DNA of 9,669 nt from a virus. Lineage: Duplodnaviria > Heunggongvirae > Uroviricota > Caudoviricetes. This document shows, piece after piece, positions 243-9,669 of this stretch. Each line of letters starts with the position of its first letter. Positions within the stretch are counted from its first letter, which is position 1. The notes beneath the pieces are model-generated. The model was not told where the DNA came from. It did not search any database and was given only the letters and a program-made list of their open reading frames with translations. The translations under genes and the position numbers were made by a program. The stretch lies in IMG/VR virus record IMGVR_UViG_2671180254_000012; one strand, given 5' to 3'.

Positions 243-1325
243 TCATTTTCTCTGGCTGATCTTTACCGGATAACCATCCCGAAGATCAATTAAGTGCTCC
301 GGTTCAGAAGCAAACCATGCATAAGATCCCCACGCCAATTCTGGTATTGCCTTTTTAAAAGGCAGAGCACTTCTGTCCATAAATGCCGTAAGGAATGCAA
401 GATTTTTCTCGCTGAACCCAGCGTCAATAGCCAAATGAGTGAGAGTAACTTTTCGTTCCCTGTTTATAGGCCCATCTGTCGCAACTACTTCAGTGAAAAC
501 TACAAGCATGTCCGAACCCGTTCGGTCCTCTCCCAAATCAATCAAAATAATATCTGGAAGTGCTTTTGAGGCATCAATATTCAGCCCCAATGCTTTTGCC
601 AATACATCATCCTGAGCAACAACTTTATTCCCGGATTCAGACAACCAGAGCACAGTTGGATTCTTAAGAAAATTAGGAGCAAAAACTTCGATGACGGCCT
701 TAGCTATTGTACTTGACGGGCCCGGAGCTAAAGTTCTCTTCTCTCCATTTGGGAAAGTGACGACTACGGCATCAGCAGCAATCACTGCCCCTGATTTCAA
801 TAAACGCAACCTAGCAAGAGCGGCTTTGTTCAAATGATTTTCTTGCCAGGAACTTATTGCACTCAGCAGCGAATCTCCTTCAAGCCCGGCATCAAAGAGT
901 GCTGCAAAAGAGCGATTCAAACTGTAACGAGGACGAGAGGATGTGGTGGGTATACCTTTACGCTCAACAATTGCATTGCAAGGTATTAGGCCATTTTTTA
1001 TAGTTTCATCACGTATTGGCTCACGCGTATTTTCCGCATACCATGCATCAGCAGGCCTTATCTTTTGTTTAGAGAAAGTCATCTTTACCCAGCTTTCTCT
1101 GGACGCATCATCAGTAAGAGCAGCCTGCGAATCTCCCATACTTACAACCTGGCTGGGCCTTATCCATCGCCCCAGCCCCTCAACCGCACCAGCATAAAAC
1201 ATGACAAAAATTGTTTTTGCAGCTATTTCCCGAATTAAATATCCACGATTCTCAGTCCCTTCAGGGAAAATTAATTGTAATCTTTCCCGGATAACATTCA
1301 ATGGGGGAACAACAGGCAGATTCAT
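243..1325 (-). CDS. Type II restriction endonuclease, BsuBI/PstI family
   Basis: 360-aa ORF immediately downstream of and ATGA-overlapping (1322-1325) an N6-adenine methyltransferase gene; the protein resembles the BsuBI/PstI endonuclease family by overall recognition. Not verified by search. Confidence 0.65.
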   Translation of the reverse strand: MNLPVVPPLNVIRERLQLIFPEGTENRGYLIREIAAKTIFVMFYAGAVEGLGRWIRPSQVVSMGDSQAALTDDASRESWVKMTFSKQKIRPADAWYAENTREPIRDETIKNGLIPCNAIVERKGIPTTSSRPRYSLNRSFAALFDAGLEGDSLLSAISSWQENHLNKAALARLRLLKSGAVIAADAVVVTFPNGEKRTLAPGPSSTIAKAVIEVFAPNFLKNPTVLWLSESGNKVVAQDDVLAKALGLNIDASKALPDIILIDLGEDRTGSDMLVVFTEVVATDGPINRERKVTLTHLAIDAGFSEKNLAFLTAFMDRSALPFKKAIPELAWGSYAWFASEPEHLIDLRDGYPVKISQRK

Positions 1326-2796
1326 GCAATCATCACTCCATAGAAACCAGCGATAGTTCTCTCAATAATCCGTCTGTGGACGCCAGCATCAATTAACGAT
1401 TGAATCTCCATCACCTGCTCCAGAGAAGGCAACGGGATTGAATTCAATTCATAGGCCGAAACAGCAACACTTCCGCTTATACACCTGAACGCCCGATCGA
1501 CAACATGCGAATTAAGTAGCATATCAATAACATCAGGGCGAACCGCAGAGAACAATCCGTTTGAATATACAATATTAATATGGTTTTCAACTACTACGCC
1601 ACCAGTTTCATCTATAAATCCCTGAGGTAAAATTGCCGCTAAAATCCTTCTGTCCTGTTCCTTCGATGTTGTCCGCTGAACAAGCACACATTCAGATTTT
1701 GTCACAAGGAAACCCTGTTGTGGGGTTATATCGATATAGGGAACATGATTTTTTCTGTCTGCACTAAAACGAAAACCAGCTGAAGTTATTGATTCCGCCC
1801 AGACTAATGGGTAGCTATTTTTTCCTTTCGTCGTACGCAACTGCGACTTAAATCGATTCCAGACTAACTGACCTGTAGAGACTGAGTATCCCAGATCAGC
1901 TAAACGCGTAGACATCTGTTTTAATACATTAAGAAAACAGGCATCATCTTTAACGCGTGGCAAAAGCCACGTTGCTCCACCTTTTTCTATATCAACATTA
2001 CCTATTTTCTCAATTTTTGCTTTGTTCAACCCCTTAGGGACAAGTGAGGATACCTGGGCCCGAACTTTATGTTCTCCCGCCTTGAATGCTGTCAACATTG
2101 TTTCCTGGAGAACATCGTCAAAGACCCCATCCCTGTCAGTGACGAAATCAAGGGCATACGGAGTAGTTTTTTCGGTCAAAAGGGTTCGCAGCGCGGTGAA
2201 ATACTGCCCACCAAGAAAAGAAGTTGGCGTAAGAAATGCAATAACTCCTGTTTTCTCTTTAACCATGCGAACAGCTAAGTCGGTGAACAATCCATATAGA
2301 TTTGCATGACCAAATAACGAACGAGAATATTTTTCTCTCGTTTTAATATCGAGAGTGACACGTCCGTAAGGCGGATTCCCTACCACAAGATCATAACCAG
2401 AAAATTTATCTTGCTGAAGCGCATCAGCAACAATAATTGTATCTTCAGGCAATCTACGTTTTACCTTTACACATAGTGGCATTAGTACAGATTCGAGCAA
2501 TACCAAACTCATCCAAGCCGCAAATGGATCGATCTCTATCCCCTTTAAACGACGACTGATTCTCCTCAACATCCATTCAGGGGAAGACCCCTTGTCTTTT
2601 TTTAACATTCGAATGGCTACTGGTGCCAAAAATGCACCGCCACCACACGCAGGATCAATAACCGATGCATGAGAAAAATCAACACCAGACTTTTCAGCCA
2701 GGTCCAAGAGACGCGCTACCAAAGGTGGGGGGGTATAGTAAGCCCCCAATTCCGAACGGTAAGCGGATGGCAGCATTACCGTATAAATTGACCCAA
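1322..2796 (-). CDS. N6-adenine DNA methyltransferase, gamma-class (PstI/BsuBI-type M subunit); 5' end lies in the N-run
   Basis: Translation contains GAYYTPPP (motif X), DPACGGGAFL (SAM-binding motif I) and VVGNPPYGR (catalytic motif IV, NPPY) in the gamma-class order. Stop TGA at 1322-1324 overlaps the endonuclease ATG. The N-terminus is hidden by the gap at 2797-3058. Confidence 0.8.
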
Positions 2797-3058
2797 NNNN
2801 NNNNNNNNNNNNNNNNNNNNNNNNNNNNNNNNNNNNNNNNNNNNNNNNNNNNNNNNNNNNNNNNNNNNNNNNNNNNNNNNNNNNNNNNNNNNNNNNNNNN
2901 NNNNNNNNNNNNNNNNNNNNNNNNNNNNNNNNNNNNNNNNNNNNNNNNNNNNNNNNNNNNNNNNNNNNNNNNNNNNNNNNNNNNNNNNNNNNNNNNNNNN
3001 NNNNNNNNNNNNNNNNNNNNNNNNNNNNNNNNNNNNNNNNNNNNNNNNNNNNNNNNNN
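2797..3058. other. Run of N (262 nt), assembly gap or masked segment
   Basis: Directly visible in the sequence. Confidence 0.95.
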
Positions 3059-3140
3059 TGGCCATGGCTTTACAAGTTTGATATCTTTCCAGATTAGAAA
3101 ACTCATTATCTGTAAAAAAATCAAAATGTTGCACATTCAT
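3059..3140 (-). CDS. 5' part of a small ORF of unknown function upstream of the methyltransferase (3' end in gap); could instead be the methyltransferase N-terminus
   Basis: ATG at 3140 (minus) giving MNVQHFDFFTDNEFSNLERYQTCKAMA before the N-run; weak AGGA upstream. Alternative starts at 3176 and 3136. Frame continuity across the gap cannot be established. Confidence 0.3.
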
Positions 3141-3390: not shown

Positions 3391-3747
3391 TTATTCGGGG
3401 CTATATTTTGTCACCCTGCGTATCCGCGCTTTCGCATTACGCTCAATCTGGATTAGCTTTTCTATATTTTTTCGCCTTTCCCGCTCCTCCTGGCGCAAGA
3501 GCCTTACATCATCTGCCAGTCTGGTTTCTCTTTTCGCCACAGAGAGCATCCAGTCAAATGGCTCCACAACTGCACCGCAAATTTTACAGCGGACCTGACG
3601 CTCTTTTTCGTCAACCCGGACAGAAGCGTGATGGCAATATGGTCTTTCCGATGGCTCATAAAGAAAATTAACCTGATTACGAGGGTTATCCTCTTTTACC
3701 GGAAATAAAACAATATTGCTTAACTCATCTTCTGGTTTTATTTCCAT
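3391..3747 (-). CDS. Hypothetical phage protein with putative zinc ribbon (C-H-H...C-x-x-C) and a charged coiled-coil tail
   Basis: ATG at 3747 preceded by strong RBS (AAAGGAGAGGAGC) on the minus strand; the longest ORF extends to a GTG at 3804. Translation MEIKPEDELSNIVLFPV...CHHASVRVDEKERQVRCKICG...RRKNIEKLIQIERNAKARIRR. Confidence 0.5.
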   Translation of the reverse strand: MEIKPEDELSNIVLFPVKEDNPRNQVNFLYEPSERPYCHHASVRVDEKERQVRCKICGAVVEPFDWMLSVAKRETRLADDVRLLRQEERERRKNIEKLIQIERNAKARIRRVTKYSPE

Positions 3748-5476: not shown

Positions 5477-5726
5477 NNNNNNNNNNNNNNNNNNNNNNNN
5501 NNNNNNNNNNNNNNNNNNNNNNNNNNNNNNNNNNNNNNNNNNNNNNNNNNNNNNNNNNNNNNNNNNNNNNNNNNNNNNNNNNNNNNNNNNNNNNNNNNNN
5601 NNNNNNNNNNNNNNNNNNNNNNNNNNNNNNNNNNNNNNNNNNNNNNNNNNNNNNNNNNNNNNNNNNNNNNNNNNNNNNNNNNNNNNNNNNNNNNNNNNNN
5701 NNNNNNNNNNNNNNNNNNNNNNNNNN
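5477..5726. other. Run of N (250 nt), assembly gap or masked segment
   Basis: Directly visible in the sequence. Confidence 0.95.
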
Positions 5727-6640: not shown

Positions 6641-6895
6641 NNNNNNNNNNNNNNNNNNNNNNNNNNNNNNNNNNNNNNNNNNNNNNNNNNNNNNNNNNNN
6701 NNNNNNNNNNNNNNNNNNNNNNNNNNNNNNNNNNNNNNNNNNNNNNNNNNNNNNNNNNNNNNNNNNNNNNNNNNNNNNNNNNNNNNNNNNNNNNNNNNNN
6801 NNNNNNNNNNNNNNNNNNNNNNNNNNNNNNNNNNNNNNNNNNNNNNNNNNNNNNNNNNNNNNNNNNNNNNNNNNNNNNNNNNNNNNNNNNNNNNN
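6641..6895. other. Run of N (255 nt), assembly gap or masked segment
   Basis: Directly visible in the sequence. Confidence 0.95.
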
Positions 6896-7249
6896 GACAA
6901 AATCATCAGCGTCTCTCACCAGTCGTTCATGCGTCTCCACCAGTTCCCGAAAATAAGCTGAACTGTGGCTGCGCATTCGAGCCACCAGCGGAGGTGGCAT
7001 TGCCCTTTCGATCGCAGGTAACAACGCCTGAATTTTTTCAACAGCGTCAGGGGTGTCTTTATCCAGCCAACGGAAAATCTTTTGGGTGTTGAGATAAAGC
7101 GTGTTGTGCTTGCTGTCGTTATGCAGAACCGGAAACGTCATTCCCAGTTCGAAATAAACCCTGGTTATTTCAGCTGCCGGAACTTTTTCACCGTCCGGAT
7201 GCGCCCAGGCTTTCATCGCCATGCGGATGTGTTCATGCTTGATTTTCAT
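6896..7249 (-). CDS. ydaT: YdaT-like protein (Rac-prophage-type, proposed CII-like regulator/toxin), C-terminus in gap
   Basis: N-terminus MKIKHEHIRMAMKAWAHPDGEKVPAAEITR... recalled as the YdaT family; ATG at 7249 overlaps the stop of the upstream HTH gene in an ATGA arrangement. Confidence 0.6.
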
Positions 7250-7509
7250 GAATCAACCCCCGCCGATGGTTGTGTGTTAGCCTGAAACTCAGCAGGCAAG
7301 CCGTCAGTTGGGTTGGGGTAGGTTTTACTGTCAATCTCATGTGGGGTCACCACCCATCCCGTTGCTTCACACCAACGTAATATTTTTTCTCCTGTAAGTT
7401 TTGCACGCCCCGTTATAACGTGGCTGACCATCCCTTGGGATGCGCCAACAATCTCAGCAAATGAACTCTGGGTTATATGAAAATGATGCAAATATTCTCC
7501 AAGATTCAT
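7246..7509 (-). CDS. Cro/YdaS-like HTH DNA-binding protein (first gene of the rightward early operon)
   Basis: ATG at 7509 with AGGGCGGA RBS; HTH segment SSFAEIVGASQGMVSHVITG; divergent from the repressor gene; stop overlaps the YdaT-like start. The longest ORF starts at a TTG at 7536. Confidence 0.6.
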   Translation of the reverse strand: MNLGEYLHHFHITQSSFAEIVGASQGMVSHVITGRAKLTGEKILRWCEATGWVVTPHEIDSKTYPNPTDGLPAEFQANTQPSAGVDS

Positions 7510-7545
7510 AATCCGCCCTATGTGATGTGTTACCAATGCATAATT

Positions 7546-7585
7546 AATAGCACTGTTATTTTTAAAAGTAAATAGTGATACTATT
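7546..7585. promoter_or_regulatory. OR-like operator region: two 15-bp inverted-repeat sites (AATAG-N5-YTATT) between the divergent repressor and cro-like genes
   Basis: AATAGTGATACTATT at 7571-7585 (6-bp arms AATAGT/ACTATT, 3-bp spacer) and the imperfect AATAGCACTGTTATT at 7546-7560, 25 bp centre to centre; on the minus strand a TTGAAA -35-like hexamer flanks the palindrome. Confidence 0.45.
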
Positions 7586-7620
7586 TCAAAGTGATTAGCA
7601 ATCTTATTAGAATTGGATGT

Positions 7621-8121
7621 ATGAAAAGAAAATCATTGTCAGACACCGACCTCAACGCCGCCAGAAGACTGAAAGAAATCTGGATGGCAAAGAAATCTCA
7701 GTTGGGATTGACTCAGGAACGTGCGGCGGAAATTATGGGGTTTTCAACACAAGGGGCGGTAAGTCACTACCTAAATGGTCAAACCCCACTAAACCTTGAG
7801 GCTGTTCTAAAGTTTGCTGGCTTACTGAAAGTTCCCCCTGAGTCAATCAGGCCAGACATGGTAGATTTGCTGCAAATTGCAAGGATGTATTGTCGAGAAC
7901 CACAGCAAGATAACATAGTCGCATTACCAGCAGACACAGAACAAACAGAGGATGAACTACCGTTTGCCGTAGAGCCGATGGAACGAGATTTAATCCATAC
8001 GTTCAGAGCTTTTCCGAAAGAAGATCAAGAACACATGCTTCAGGAGATGAAAGATAAAAAAGAATCAATGGATCGTACGGTTGCGCGGTGGTTAGCTGCA
8101 CAAAAAGGCCGTCGCGCCTAA
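7621..8121 (+). CDS. cI-like prophage repressor (RacR/PaaR2-like), HTH XRE-type N-terminal domain, no recognisable LexA-type peptidase domain
   Basis: ATG at 7621 (the track start at 7591 is a GTG); HTH LGLTQERAAEIMGFSTQGAVSHYLNG; divergent to the cro-like gene; no obvious SD, so possibly a leaderless or short-leader transcript as for lambda cI from pRM. Confidence 0.65.
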   Translation: MKRKSLSDTDLNAARRLKEIWMAKKSQLGLTQERAAEIMGFSTQGAVSHYLNGQTPLNLEAVLKFAGLLKVPPESIRPDMVDLLQIARMYCREPQQDNIVALPADTEQTEDELPFAVEPMERDLIHTFRAFPKEDQEHMLQEMKDKKESMDRTVARWLAAQKGRRA

Positions 8122-8140
8122 ATCAGAGGAGATATGTAAA

Positions 8141-8335
8141 ATGAGTACAGTCCTTTCCCCAATGGTTTCAGAATTTGAGACAGTTGAGCAAGAAAATAGT
8201 TACAACGAATGGCTGCGGGCCAAAGTAGCAGCAAGCCTCGCGGATCCCCGCCCGGCGATTCCGCATGATGAGGTAATGGCGGAAATGGAACAAATTATTG
8301 CCCAAATTGCTGCTGCAACTCACAGAGGTGAATAA
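8141..8335 (+). CDS. paaA2: PaaA2-like antitoxin (ParE-associated antitoxin)
   Basis: 64-aa ORF with AGAGGAGA RBS; sequence ...SPMVSEFETVEQENSYNEWLRAKVAASLADPRPAIPHDEV... recalled as close to E. coli O157 PaaA2; stop TAA overlaps the toxin ATG by 1 nt. Confidence 0.65.
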   Translation: MSTVLSPMVSEFETVEQENSYNEWLRAKVAASLADPRPAIPHDEVMAEMEQIIAQIAAATHRGE

Positions 8336-8625
8336 TGTTACCCGTTTTATGGCTACCATCTGCTCGTGATGATTTGCGCCAGATCGTAGCCTACATAGCT
8401 AAAGAAAATCCCGCGGCAGCACGCAGAATGAAAATTCGAATTGAAACATCCGTTTTGCCGCTCACAGAGCATCCTTACCTGTATCCTCCAAGCGAGCGAG
8501 TTCTTGGTCTTCGTGAAATTGTAACTCATCCTAACTACATCATCCTTTACCGAGTAACAGCATCAAGCATAGAAGTAGTAAATATTGTGCATTCTCGAAG
8601 ACAGTATCCAGGCAAAAACAGTTAA
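8335..8625 (+). CDS. parE2: ParE/RelE-family toxin (ParE2-like)
   Basis: 96-aa ORF MLPVLWLPSARDDL...EHPYLYPPSERVLGLREIVTHPNYIILYRV...; GAGGTG RBS; translationally coupled to the upstream antitoxin. Confidence 0.7.
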   Translation: MLPVLWLPSARDDLRQIVAYIAKENPAAARRMKIRIETSVLPLTEHPYLYPPSERVLGLREIVTHPNYIILYRVTASSIEVVNIVHSRRQYPGKNS

Positions 8626-8641
8626 TTATTCCCGCCGACAG

Positions 8642-8663
8642 AACCACCTTAGGGTGGTTTTTT
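8642..8663 (+). terminator. Rho-independent terminator candidate after the toxin gene
   Basis: AACCACC-TTAG-GGTGGTT stem-loop followed by TTTTTT, 17 nt after the parE2-like stop. Confidence 0.5.
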
Positions 8664-8681
8664 CTTGCCCCAACAAAAAAC

Positions 8682-8723
8682 AATAGCGATGCTATTTACA
8701 TCAAAAAAAATAATGATGCTATT
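8682..8723. promoter_or_regulatory. OL-like operator region: perfect 15-bp inverted repeat AATAGCGATGCTATT plus a second imperfect site
   Basis: AATAGCGATGCTATT at 8682-8696 (6-bp arms, 3-bp spacer GAT) and AATAATGATGCTATT at 8709-8723, 27 bp centre to centre; same motif family as 7546-7585; upstream of the ydaF-like gene. Confidence 0.45.
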
Positions 8724-8904
8724 GTTTCAGGCGTCAACCCACCCCGCCCCACAGAATGCAGGGCAATACTTCGAGTTACCAGACAGTGGTCAGGGGTTAA
8801 GTAGCCAGCCCGAGGCGTAAGAACATGACGGCAGGGTTCAATCTTTAACTATGCAGCAGGTTTTTTGTTCCGCCACCCCGGCGTTAAGGGGAAATGAGGT
8901 CAGC

Positions 8905-9057
8905 ATGGATACTATCGATCTTGGCAACAACGAATCTCTGGTGTGCGGCGTGTTCCCTAACCAGGATGGAACGTTTACCGCCATGACGTATACCAAAAGC
9001 AAAACGTTTAAAACCGAATCTGGCGCGCGTTGCTGGTTAGCCAGAAACACTGACTGA
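8905..9057 (+). CDS. Small YdaF-like protein (DUF1391-type, Rac prophage family)
   Basis: ATG at 8905 with GAGG RBS; MDTIDLGNNESLVCGVFPNQDGTFTAMTYTKSKTFKTESGARCWLARNTD recalled as similar to Rac YdaF; the track ORF begins earlier at 8851 without an SD. Confidence 0.5.
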   Translation: MDTIDLGNNESLVCGVFPNQDGTFTAMTYTKSKTFKTESGARCWLARNTD

Positions 9058-9068
9058 TGAGGCTGACG

Positions 9069-9434
9069 ATGGAATTTAAAGATTTACCGTCTGATGTACA
9101 GAAAACAGCAGCTCATACATTGCATTCTGTGCTGCGAGAAATCGGGAAAGATATTGCAAGCGAGCCAGCAAAAGATCTGGCCCGGAAAATCAAGACCGCT
9201 TTCGTTGAGCTTTATAATGTTGGCACTGACTCTGAAACTGTCGAGACCAAGACCGTAAGTTCACCAATATTCTCACTTGAGCCAAGCGTATTATCAGGTG
9301 AAATATGCACCGAGATTTCCAGCGAACTGCTTCCGGTAATACGAGAAGCAATTCGCCGTCGCGGTTTGGATGGAAGTTATGATCATGACGTTCTGCAAGT
9401 TCTCAGGACAATGGTGACTTCACTGGGGATTTGA
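9069..9434 (+). CDS. Hypothetical protein in the early-left operon position (121 aa)
   Basis: ATG at 9069 with GAGG 6 nt upstream; an alternative ATG at 9057 overlaps the upstream stop. No recognisable motif; not arginine-rich, so not an N-type antiterminator. Confidence 0.45.
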   Translation: MEFKDLPSDVQKTAAHTLHSVLREIGKDIASEPAKDLARKIKTAFVELYNVGTDSETVETKTVSSPIFSLEPSVLSGEICTEISSELLPVIREAIRRRGLDGSYDHDVLQVLRTMVTSLGI

Positions 9435-9669
9435 TCCCTGCGTCCTCTAAGCTTTTGATATAGCGGTCCTCCAAGAAGCGGTAAATTTTGTCGAAATCAT
9501 CTTTTCCCTCTGGTTTATTCAGAGGATTACAGGACCCGTAAGTAGCGGCATACATTTCAACCGTTTGGTAATGACTCCAACTTATTGATAGTGTTTTATG
9601 TTCAGATAATGCCCGATGACTTTGTCATGCAGCTCCACCGATTTTGAGAACGACAGCGACTTCCGTCCC

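Follow-up and report, generated by a model that had tools for sequence, protein, structure and literature searches.

The two inverted repeats at positions 8682-8696 and 8709-8723 are very probably the left operators, OL2 and OL1, of a lambdoid prophage immunity region, together with its early-left promoter, PL. The window, i.e., the whole 9,669-nt stretch of viral DNA that was analyzed, is an early regulatory region of a lambdoid prophage. In the original prediction, the repeats were taken as operators of a pL-like promoter, related in motif to those of the OR region between the repressor and cro-like genes; every expectation of this reading that can be formulated on the sequence, namely in motif, geometry, gene order, conservation, and the organization of other immunity types, was indeed found to hold, and by analogy it can lean on the experimentally studied homologue in prophage CP-933P. 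This yields a predicted operator sequence, and a complete predicted map of OR and OL, for an immunity type that had not been characterised. The arrangement reveals no new principle.

Gene layout of the window

The genes around the repeats were assigned by ORF map and Pfam. The cro-like YdaS gene (HTH) lies on the minus strand at 7246-7509. On the plus strand lies a series of genes, consisting of the gene of a 166-amino acid repressor (7621-8121; HTH_3), a PaaA-type antitoxin gene (8141-8335; PaaA2, E = 3e-23), a ParE-type toxin gene (8335-8625; ParE_toxin, E = 2e-17), and a gene of the ydfA/ydaF family (8905-9057; DUF1391, E = 1e-28). The last of these is the first gene of the leftward operon; it is annotated as ydfA in close relatives such as L001, and its family includes YdaF of the Rac prophage. 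Thus, the ORF map, the Pfam matches and the terminator described below agree with the proposal that the repressor, antitoxin and toxin genes are situated between OR and OL, and the palindromes indeed follow the parE terminator and precede the ydaF-family gene.

The closest complete E. coli genomes match the window at 98% across 7203-9048, and in these genomes the plus-strand operon goes on after ydfA; the genes that follow are ydfB, ydfC, one of the Rha family, dicB and one for an exonuclease. The likeness to them stops near 9048; a 125-amino acid ORF that has no Pfam match (9057-9434) stands at the position of their ydfB/ydfC. The minus strand additionally carries a YdaT-family gene, replication genes (DnaC/IstB-like ATPase), and DUF1627 and DUF977 genes. 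Further along on this strand, the early-right region ends distally in restriction-modification cargo (243-3136), a pair of genes of which one is for a restriction endonuclease of BsuBI/PstI type and the other is of Eco57I/N6-methylase type. It is to be noted that three N-masked runs of 250-262 bp each (2797-3058, 5477-5726 and 6641-6895) break the methylase gene, the replication genes and ydaT; the ORFs that extend across them are artefactual fusions. Lastly, a perfect TTGATTTTCATGAATCAA covers both the stop of ydaS and the start of ydaT (7239-7256). The recognition sequence of YdaT has been published as TTGATT-N6-AATCAA (PMC9986795), and its match to this site suggests a putative PRE-like, CII-type control point.

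Operator motif and its statistics

Both palindromic sequences that had been reported for 8682-8723 are present there: OL2 reads AATAGCGATGCTATT (8682-8696), with no mismatch to the motif, and OL1 reads AATAATGATGCTATT (8709-8723). The family consensus, drawn from 14 distinct sites of this immunity group, is the 7-1-7 palindrome AATAGCA-N-TGCTATT. The earlier description of OL2 as a perfect palindrome is correct for its 6-bp arms (AATAGC and GCTATT) but not for its 3-bp centre, and the site carries a G at position 7 of the consensus; in the OL1 copy, two of the 12 arm bases deviate. In the intergenic region that separates the cro-like gene from the repressor gene, the putative operator OR1 (AATAGCACTGTTATT, 7546-7560) matches the motif and overlaps the -10 of the PR-like promoter, whereas OR2 (AATAGTGATACTATT, 7571-7585) overlaps the -35 of PR and abuts the -35 of the repressor promoter. 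A fifth and weaker copy, OR3 (ATTAGCAATCTTATT, 7594-7608), has three mismatches, scores 16.9 bits, and lies inside the repressor-maintenance promoter, bringing the sites in this intergenic region to three.

When up to two mismatches were allowed, the pattern AATAGCNNNGCTATT was matched four times in the 9669 bp, compared to 0.32 matches expected, and four matches were reached in none of 200 shuffles; all four fall inside the two intergenic regions. In order to avoid circularity, a symmetrised weight matrix was then trained on the three OR sites only. This matrix picked 8682 and 8709 with 19.8 and 18.0 bits, respectively, scores that interleave with those of the training sites and uphold the claim of a motif shared with OR. 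Beyond the training sites it picked nothing else in the window, where the best unrelated position reached 6.7 bits and a value of 9.7 bits belonged to an overlapping register of OR1. In 20,000 shuffles of the segment 8626-8904, one equally good site arose once and two such sites never arose. Overall, by the OR-only matrix and by the excess of pattern matches, OL holds two sites with the OR consensus. A third OL site was not found with the same matrix between the terminator and the leader, where the maximum besides OL1 and OL2 was 6.3 bits.

As a separate observation, OR2 of the window (AATAGTGATACTATT) differs from OR2 of the closest relatives, which is AATAGCGATGCTATT, by two transitions, which affect the mirror-image positions 6 and 10 and so leave the dyad symmetry intact. 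The same two positions vary at other sites of the family as well.

Conservation in relatives of the same immunity type

Eight relative loci of the same immunity group, derived from E. coli genomes and IMG/VR contigs with ~80-98% DNA identity, were compared with the window. Each of them contains two OL sites and two or three OR sites, and their OL1 is either AATAGCAGTGCTATT or AATAGTAGTGGTATT. The half-sites AATAG[C/T] and [G/A]CTATT are kept in all eight, the outer AATA...TATT being invariant and positions 6 and 10 degenerate, while the operator centres are free and the flanks drift; the hexamers TTTACA and TATTGT are also retained. The repressors of these loci are 78-99% identical overall, and their HTH segment is invariant, even in the relatives with 78-79% overall identity. 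Among 5426 complete E. coli genomes, ~72 carry the OL segment, and O104:H4 strains belong to these. The immunity region was found in none of 50,697 records of isolated phages; the partial matches in this collection were to the leader and, in phage Evi, to the TA region.

These results bear on the idea that the palindromes could be sites of the antitoxin-toxin complex, as in TA autoregulation, or simply AT-rich repeats that happen to lie by a terminator. The sites do adjoin the TA genes and their surroundings are AT-rich; however, the single Pfam match of PaaA is to the short neutralising family PaaA2, which lacks a DNA-binding domain, and chance is excluded by the pattern and matrix statistics and by the conservation in diverged relatives. 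Either version must therefore be considered exceedingly improbable, and the repeats are treated below as repressor operators.

Terminator and promoters

An intrinsic terminator at 8640-8667 (plus strand) ends the transcript of the repressor, PaaA and ParE genes. It consists of a 9-bp stem and a T-run, and its good fold (-15.1 kcal/mol, z = -3.5) bears out the terminator that had been postulated after parE. A simple scanner missed this element, which is kept in L001, L002 and L003. OL2 begins 15 bp past its end; the operators are thus located after the terminator, where the repressor operon has ended at its 3' side, and opposite OR.

The promoter elements follow the same plan at the two ends. 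The PR-like promoter on the minus strand (7544-7572), which would drive the cro-like ydaS, is laid out as AATAGTATCACTA-TTTACT-17 bp-TATTAA, and the putative PL on the plus strand as AATAGCGATGCTA-TTTACA-spacer-TATTGT. The PL -35, TTTACA (8695-8700), is identical in all relatives and has TTTACT as its PR counterpart, and the -10, TATTGT (8720-8725), predicts a transcript start near 8732. In both promoters, O2 overlaps the -35 by 2 nt and O1 overlaps the -10 by 4 nt; the hexamers at OL are placed as they are at PR. A consensus scan also revealed a PRM-like promoter, TTCAAA-17-TAGAAT (7585-7613, plus strand), the predicted start of which is at about the repressor ATG, so that the repressor mRNA is predicted to be leaderless. 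Leaderless mRNAs are reported for both paaR2 and lambda cI in the CP-933P study (PMC8630535).

The window departs from its relatives in one respect. The A-run between OL2 and OL1 (8703-8710) has eight A's, which is unique among the nine loci compared (six in the closest relatives, as in L001 and L130), and results in a 27-bp spacing of the OL sites and a 19-bp promoter spacer. In all eight relatives, including the closest two (~98% identity), the corresponding values are 25 and 17 bp. The consensus scanner called no plus-strand promoter at OL in the window, and the alternative -10 at a 17-bp spacing is GCTATT, a poor one. The two extra A's may be either a homopolymer error of sequencing or assembly or a real, attenuating change; if real, the 19-bp spacer predicts a weaker promoter and an altered phasing of the two sites. 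Such weakening is general knowledge of sigma-70 promoters. A spacer of 19 bp may still leave a promoter partly active.

It could be argued from these features that the repeats are true operators next to a promoter that the two extra A's have crippled in this copy. The sites would then serve mainly as a distal anchor from which the repressor loops to OR, or would be a relic, and even derepression would leave the ydfA operon mostly untranscribed. The longer spacings and the silent scanner are consistent with it, as is the report that PaaR2 is octameric like CI (Jurenas 2021, PMC8630535), the C-terminal region of PaaR2 being common to the repressor of the window. Against it stand the residual activity that 19-bp-spacer promoters may have, the possibility that the length of the A-run is an error, and the rest of the operon within the window, which shows no decay. 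On balance, this explanation is considered unlikely, and a repressor-controlled PL, perhaps of reduced strength, remains the preferred reading.

It is far less probable still that the repeats control a promoter of the minus strand, TTGACG-16-CATTAT (8737 to 8710), from which an RNA antisense to parE would be made. This sequence does match the consensus at nine of 12 positions and has its -10 inside OL1, but a scan of this region should return three matches of such quality at random, and the conserved transcribed unit is on the other side. Moreover, TTGACG is absent from L002 and L003, in which the operators are kept, and because its -35 is not conserved in these two loci, the match is probably fortuitous.

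A conserved leader joined to many immunity types

If the repeats constitute OL and PL, sequence that is specific to the immunity type should give way to shared sequence where the transcript begins, and this is where the boundary is indeed placed. The window, CP-933P of O157:H7 and Rac of K-12 are unrelated until ~10 bp past the -10, and are then near-identical for ~170 nt, up to the first gene. This plus-strand leader of the leftward operon, located at 8735-8904 by alignment across immunity types, shows ~95% identity among copies that follow at least 11 immunity modules of unrelated sequence; further copies lie at 2625-2790 of L004, 1505-1675 of L005 and 2501-2659 of L127. Of the 5426 complete E. 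coli genomes, 3694 contain it, and several isolated phages have it too. The 5' end of the leader is C-rich, and a small CGCC-loop-GGCG hairpin is located just before the ydfA ribosome-binding site.

To extend the comparison, an exact 18-mer of the leader was used to retrieve 120 viral contigs; adding the other loci under comparison and the window itself brought the total to 126 copies. The 80 bp upstream of the leader in these copies fell into ~11 unrelated modules, Rac, CP-933P and HK022-like ones among them, and each module contained a -35-like hexamer flanked by inverted repeats specific to the type. In most types, a cluster of these repeats is found again 550-1300 bp upstream, as would be expected of OR, and its density is well above that of control DNA taken downstream; two module types had no such upstream excess. 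A distance of 550-1300 bp corresponds to a repressor gene, either alone or accompanied by cargo. The mosaic boundary being at about the predicted transcript start, the conserved unit starts there, and the variable unit comprises operator and promoter. Judged by these sequences, the operator module and the repressor appear to travel as one immunity unit.

The role of the leader itself can be addressed only tentatively. Its position is that of nutL in lambda and of putL in HK022, and in the phages with the leader no N gene heads this operon. It is conceivable, at modest odds, that the leader is an RNA element not described before, with which the early-left operon of Rac-like phages begins and which acts in cis, be it in processivity or antitermination, in the loading of Rho, or in controlling how ydfA is translated; alternatively, the leader could be a conserved recombination linker only. 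Two specific candidates were rejected. A put homologue was discarded, as the leader has no similarity to the PL-putL of HK022 and no second copy in the window, and a strongly structured RNA was discarded, as its minimum free energy was no better than that of shuffles (z = +1.3). A permissive Rfam scan of 7200-9669 returned nothing relevant, the sole match being a sub-threshold antisense family inside the TA genes. The 80 distinct leader copies are too similar to one another to offer a usable covariation signal, and the 75% identical copy of phage vB_Apl-pPE4 revealed no clear compensatory changes by eye.

Repressor and toxin-antitoxin proteins

HTH_3 was the sole Pfam match of the repressor (7621-8121). 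Its N-terminal 80 residues resemble the DNA-binding domain of lambda CI (PDB 1lmb, E = 3e-9), whereas its C-terminal 44 residues are 52% identical to the C-terminus of PaaR2 (E = 5e-15). The N-terminal DNA-binding part could not be aligned with PaaR2, while the position and orientation of the gene are those of paaR2. Judging from these matches, the repressor looks chimeric, with a lambda CI-like N-terminal domain and a PaaR2-like tail. The N-terminal domain also includes a basic arm, MKRKSL. With its CI-like HTH, its length of 166 amino acids, and no S24 autocleavage (peptidase) domain found by Pfam, the protein falls short of full membership of the lambda CI family, and is best described as CI-like at the level of the predicted operators.

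PaaA of the window shares 75% identity with PaaA2 of CP-933P, and ParE shares 67% with the ParE2 of that prophage. A PaaA-type antitoxin gene followed by a ParE toxin gene is the order of the three-component PaaR-PaaA-ParE toxin-antitoxin operon (Hallez 2010; Jurenas 2021). The identification of the repressor as PaaR1 of O157 was considered and not adopted; EDL933 has the leader only, without an operator module of the 8682-8723 type.

Proposed mechanism and its implications

We infer that dimers of the repressor would bind the AATAGCA-N-TGCTATT sites, and YdaS probably binds them as well. By analogy with CP-933P and lambda, repressor dimers and YdaS would occupy OL1 and OL2 and occlude RNA polymerase, as the two sites would cover the TTTACA and TATTGT of a plus-strand promoter reading into the leader, ydfA and, in the relatives, ydfBC-dicB-exonuclease. 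Such occupancy is proposed to shut off the ydfA-dicB-exonuclease operon in the lysogen. The operon of the repressor, PaaA and ParE would start at the leaderless PRM-like promoter beside OR and end at the terminator before OL2, in which case the toxin-antitoxin pair would be expressed with the repressor from that promoter; with this span from OR to the terminator, the pair takes the position of rexAB in lambda. The PaaR2-like C-terminal region may additionally permit higher-order assembly and looping between OL and OR over ~1.1 kb.

Several implications follow. The design with a TA pair in the immunity region, as described for CP-933P, is modular, in that its PaaA-ParE cargo and its regulator tail are found here alongside another DNA-binding domain, one of lambda CI type, and operators to match. 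The analysis also points to the candidate promoter that controls the dicB/kil-type host-killing genes in these prophages. Finally, the 17-bp and 19-bp spacers offer a natural pair for the interplay of operator phasing and promoter strength.

Comparison with known systems

The Rac prophage of K-12 (racR/ydaG-ydaF) has the same leader and the same layout. Upstream of this leader, TTAGGC-N5-GCCTA repeats flank a TTGACA-17-TATAGT sequence and match the repeats of the racR-ydaS intergenic region. Specifically, in L005 at 1440-1510, between racR and ydaG, two or three such repeats surround the near-consensus promoter, and this segment looks, by its sequence, like the OL/PL of Rac, one that carries no explicit description in the Rac papers examined. 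The ydaG, ydaF and kilR genes of Rac rise 40-70-fold when the C protein, a competitor of RacR, is expressed (PMC11014345). In contrast to the window, the Rac repressor is unrelated in sequence, its operators are different, and there is no toxin-antitoxin cargo.

In the case of HK022, the PL/OL segment is a validated promoter and has been used as a native one (PMC9378689). One of the leader-linked modules is nearly identical to this segment up to the base after the -10, and an HK022-like PL/OL module stands before the same leader in many prophages; as in the window, its -35, TTTACA, overlaps the upstream operator. This joining of module and leader was seen in L063, L022, L028 and similar contigs (~-135 to -55 from the leader 18-mer) and on the reverse strand of L006 (~3640-3700), and is a very sharp mosaic joint at what would be the transcript start. 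HK022 itself has putL after the promoter, with no similarity to the leader, and the operators and repressor are different from those of the window.

With lambda, the window shares repeated dimer sites over the -35 and -10, an OL motif that equals the OR motif, a repressor N-terminal domain homologous to that of CI, and a repressor mRNA that is predicted to be leaderless. In lambda, the order between OR and OL is cI-rexA-rexB-t(imm); similarly, the cargo genes of the window would be co-transcribed with the repressor gene, and the terminator just before OL (8640-8667) is the analogue of t-imm. The differences are that the repressor of the window has no S24 self-cleavage domain, its sites are 15 bp long and of another sequence, OL has two sites rather than three, and OR and OL are ~1.1 kb apart, compared to 2.4 kb in lambda. 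Furthermore, the first PL genes in the window are of ydfA type, with neither an N gene nor nutL.

A close parallel in overall design is CP-933P of E. coli O157:H7, in which PaaR2 and YdaS bind the intergenic operators (Jurenas 2021, PMC8630535). Its promoter PL933P, beside and downstream of paaR2-paaA2-parE2, has three OL sites and is repressed ~100-fold by either PaaR2 or YdaS (PMC8630535). The order of ydaT, ydaS, OR, regulator, PaaA, ParE and OL/PL is the same as in the window, as is the conserved leader. The operators, however, are of TTTAGT type in CP-933P and unrelated to the AATAGCA-N-TGCTATT of the window, where two OL sites are found rather than the three reported; the DNA-binding domain is another one, and the regulator has 123 rather than 166 amino acids. 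The locus in the window is not that of CP-933P: the two sets of operators show no relation, and the alignment of the repressor with PaaR2 is confined to the last 44 residues. Considering that the arrangement has already been shown experimentally in this sister prophage, the window would represent a new specificity of an established design.
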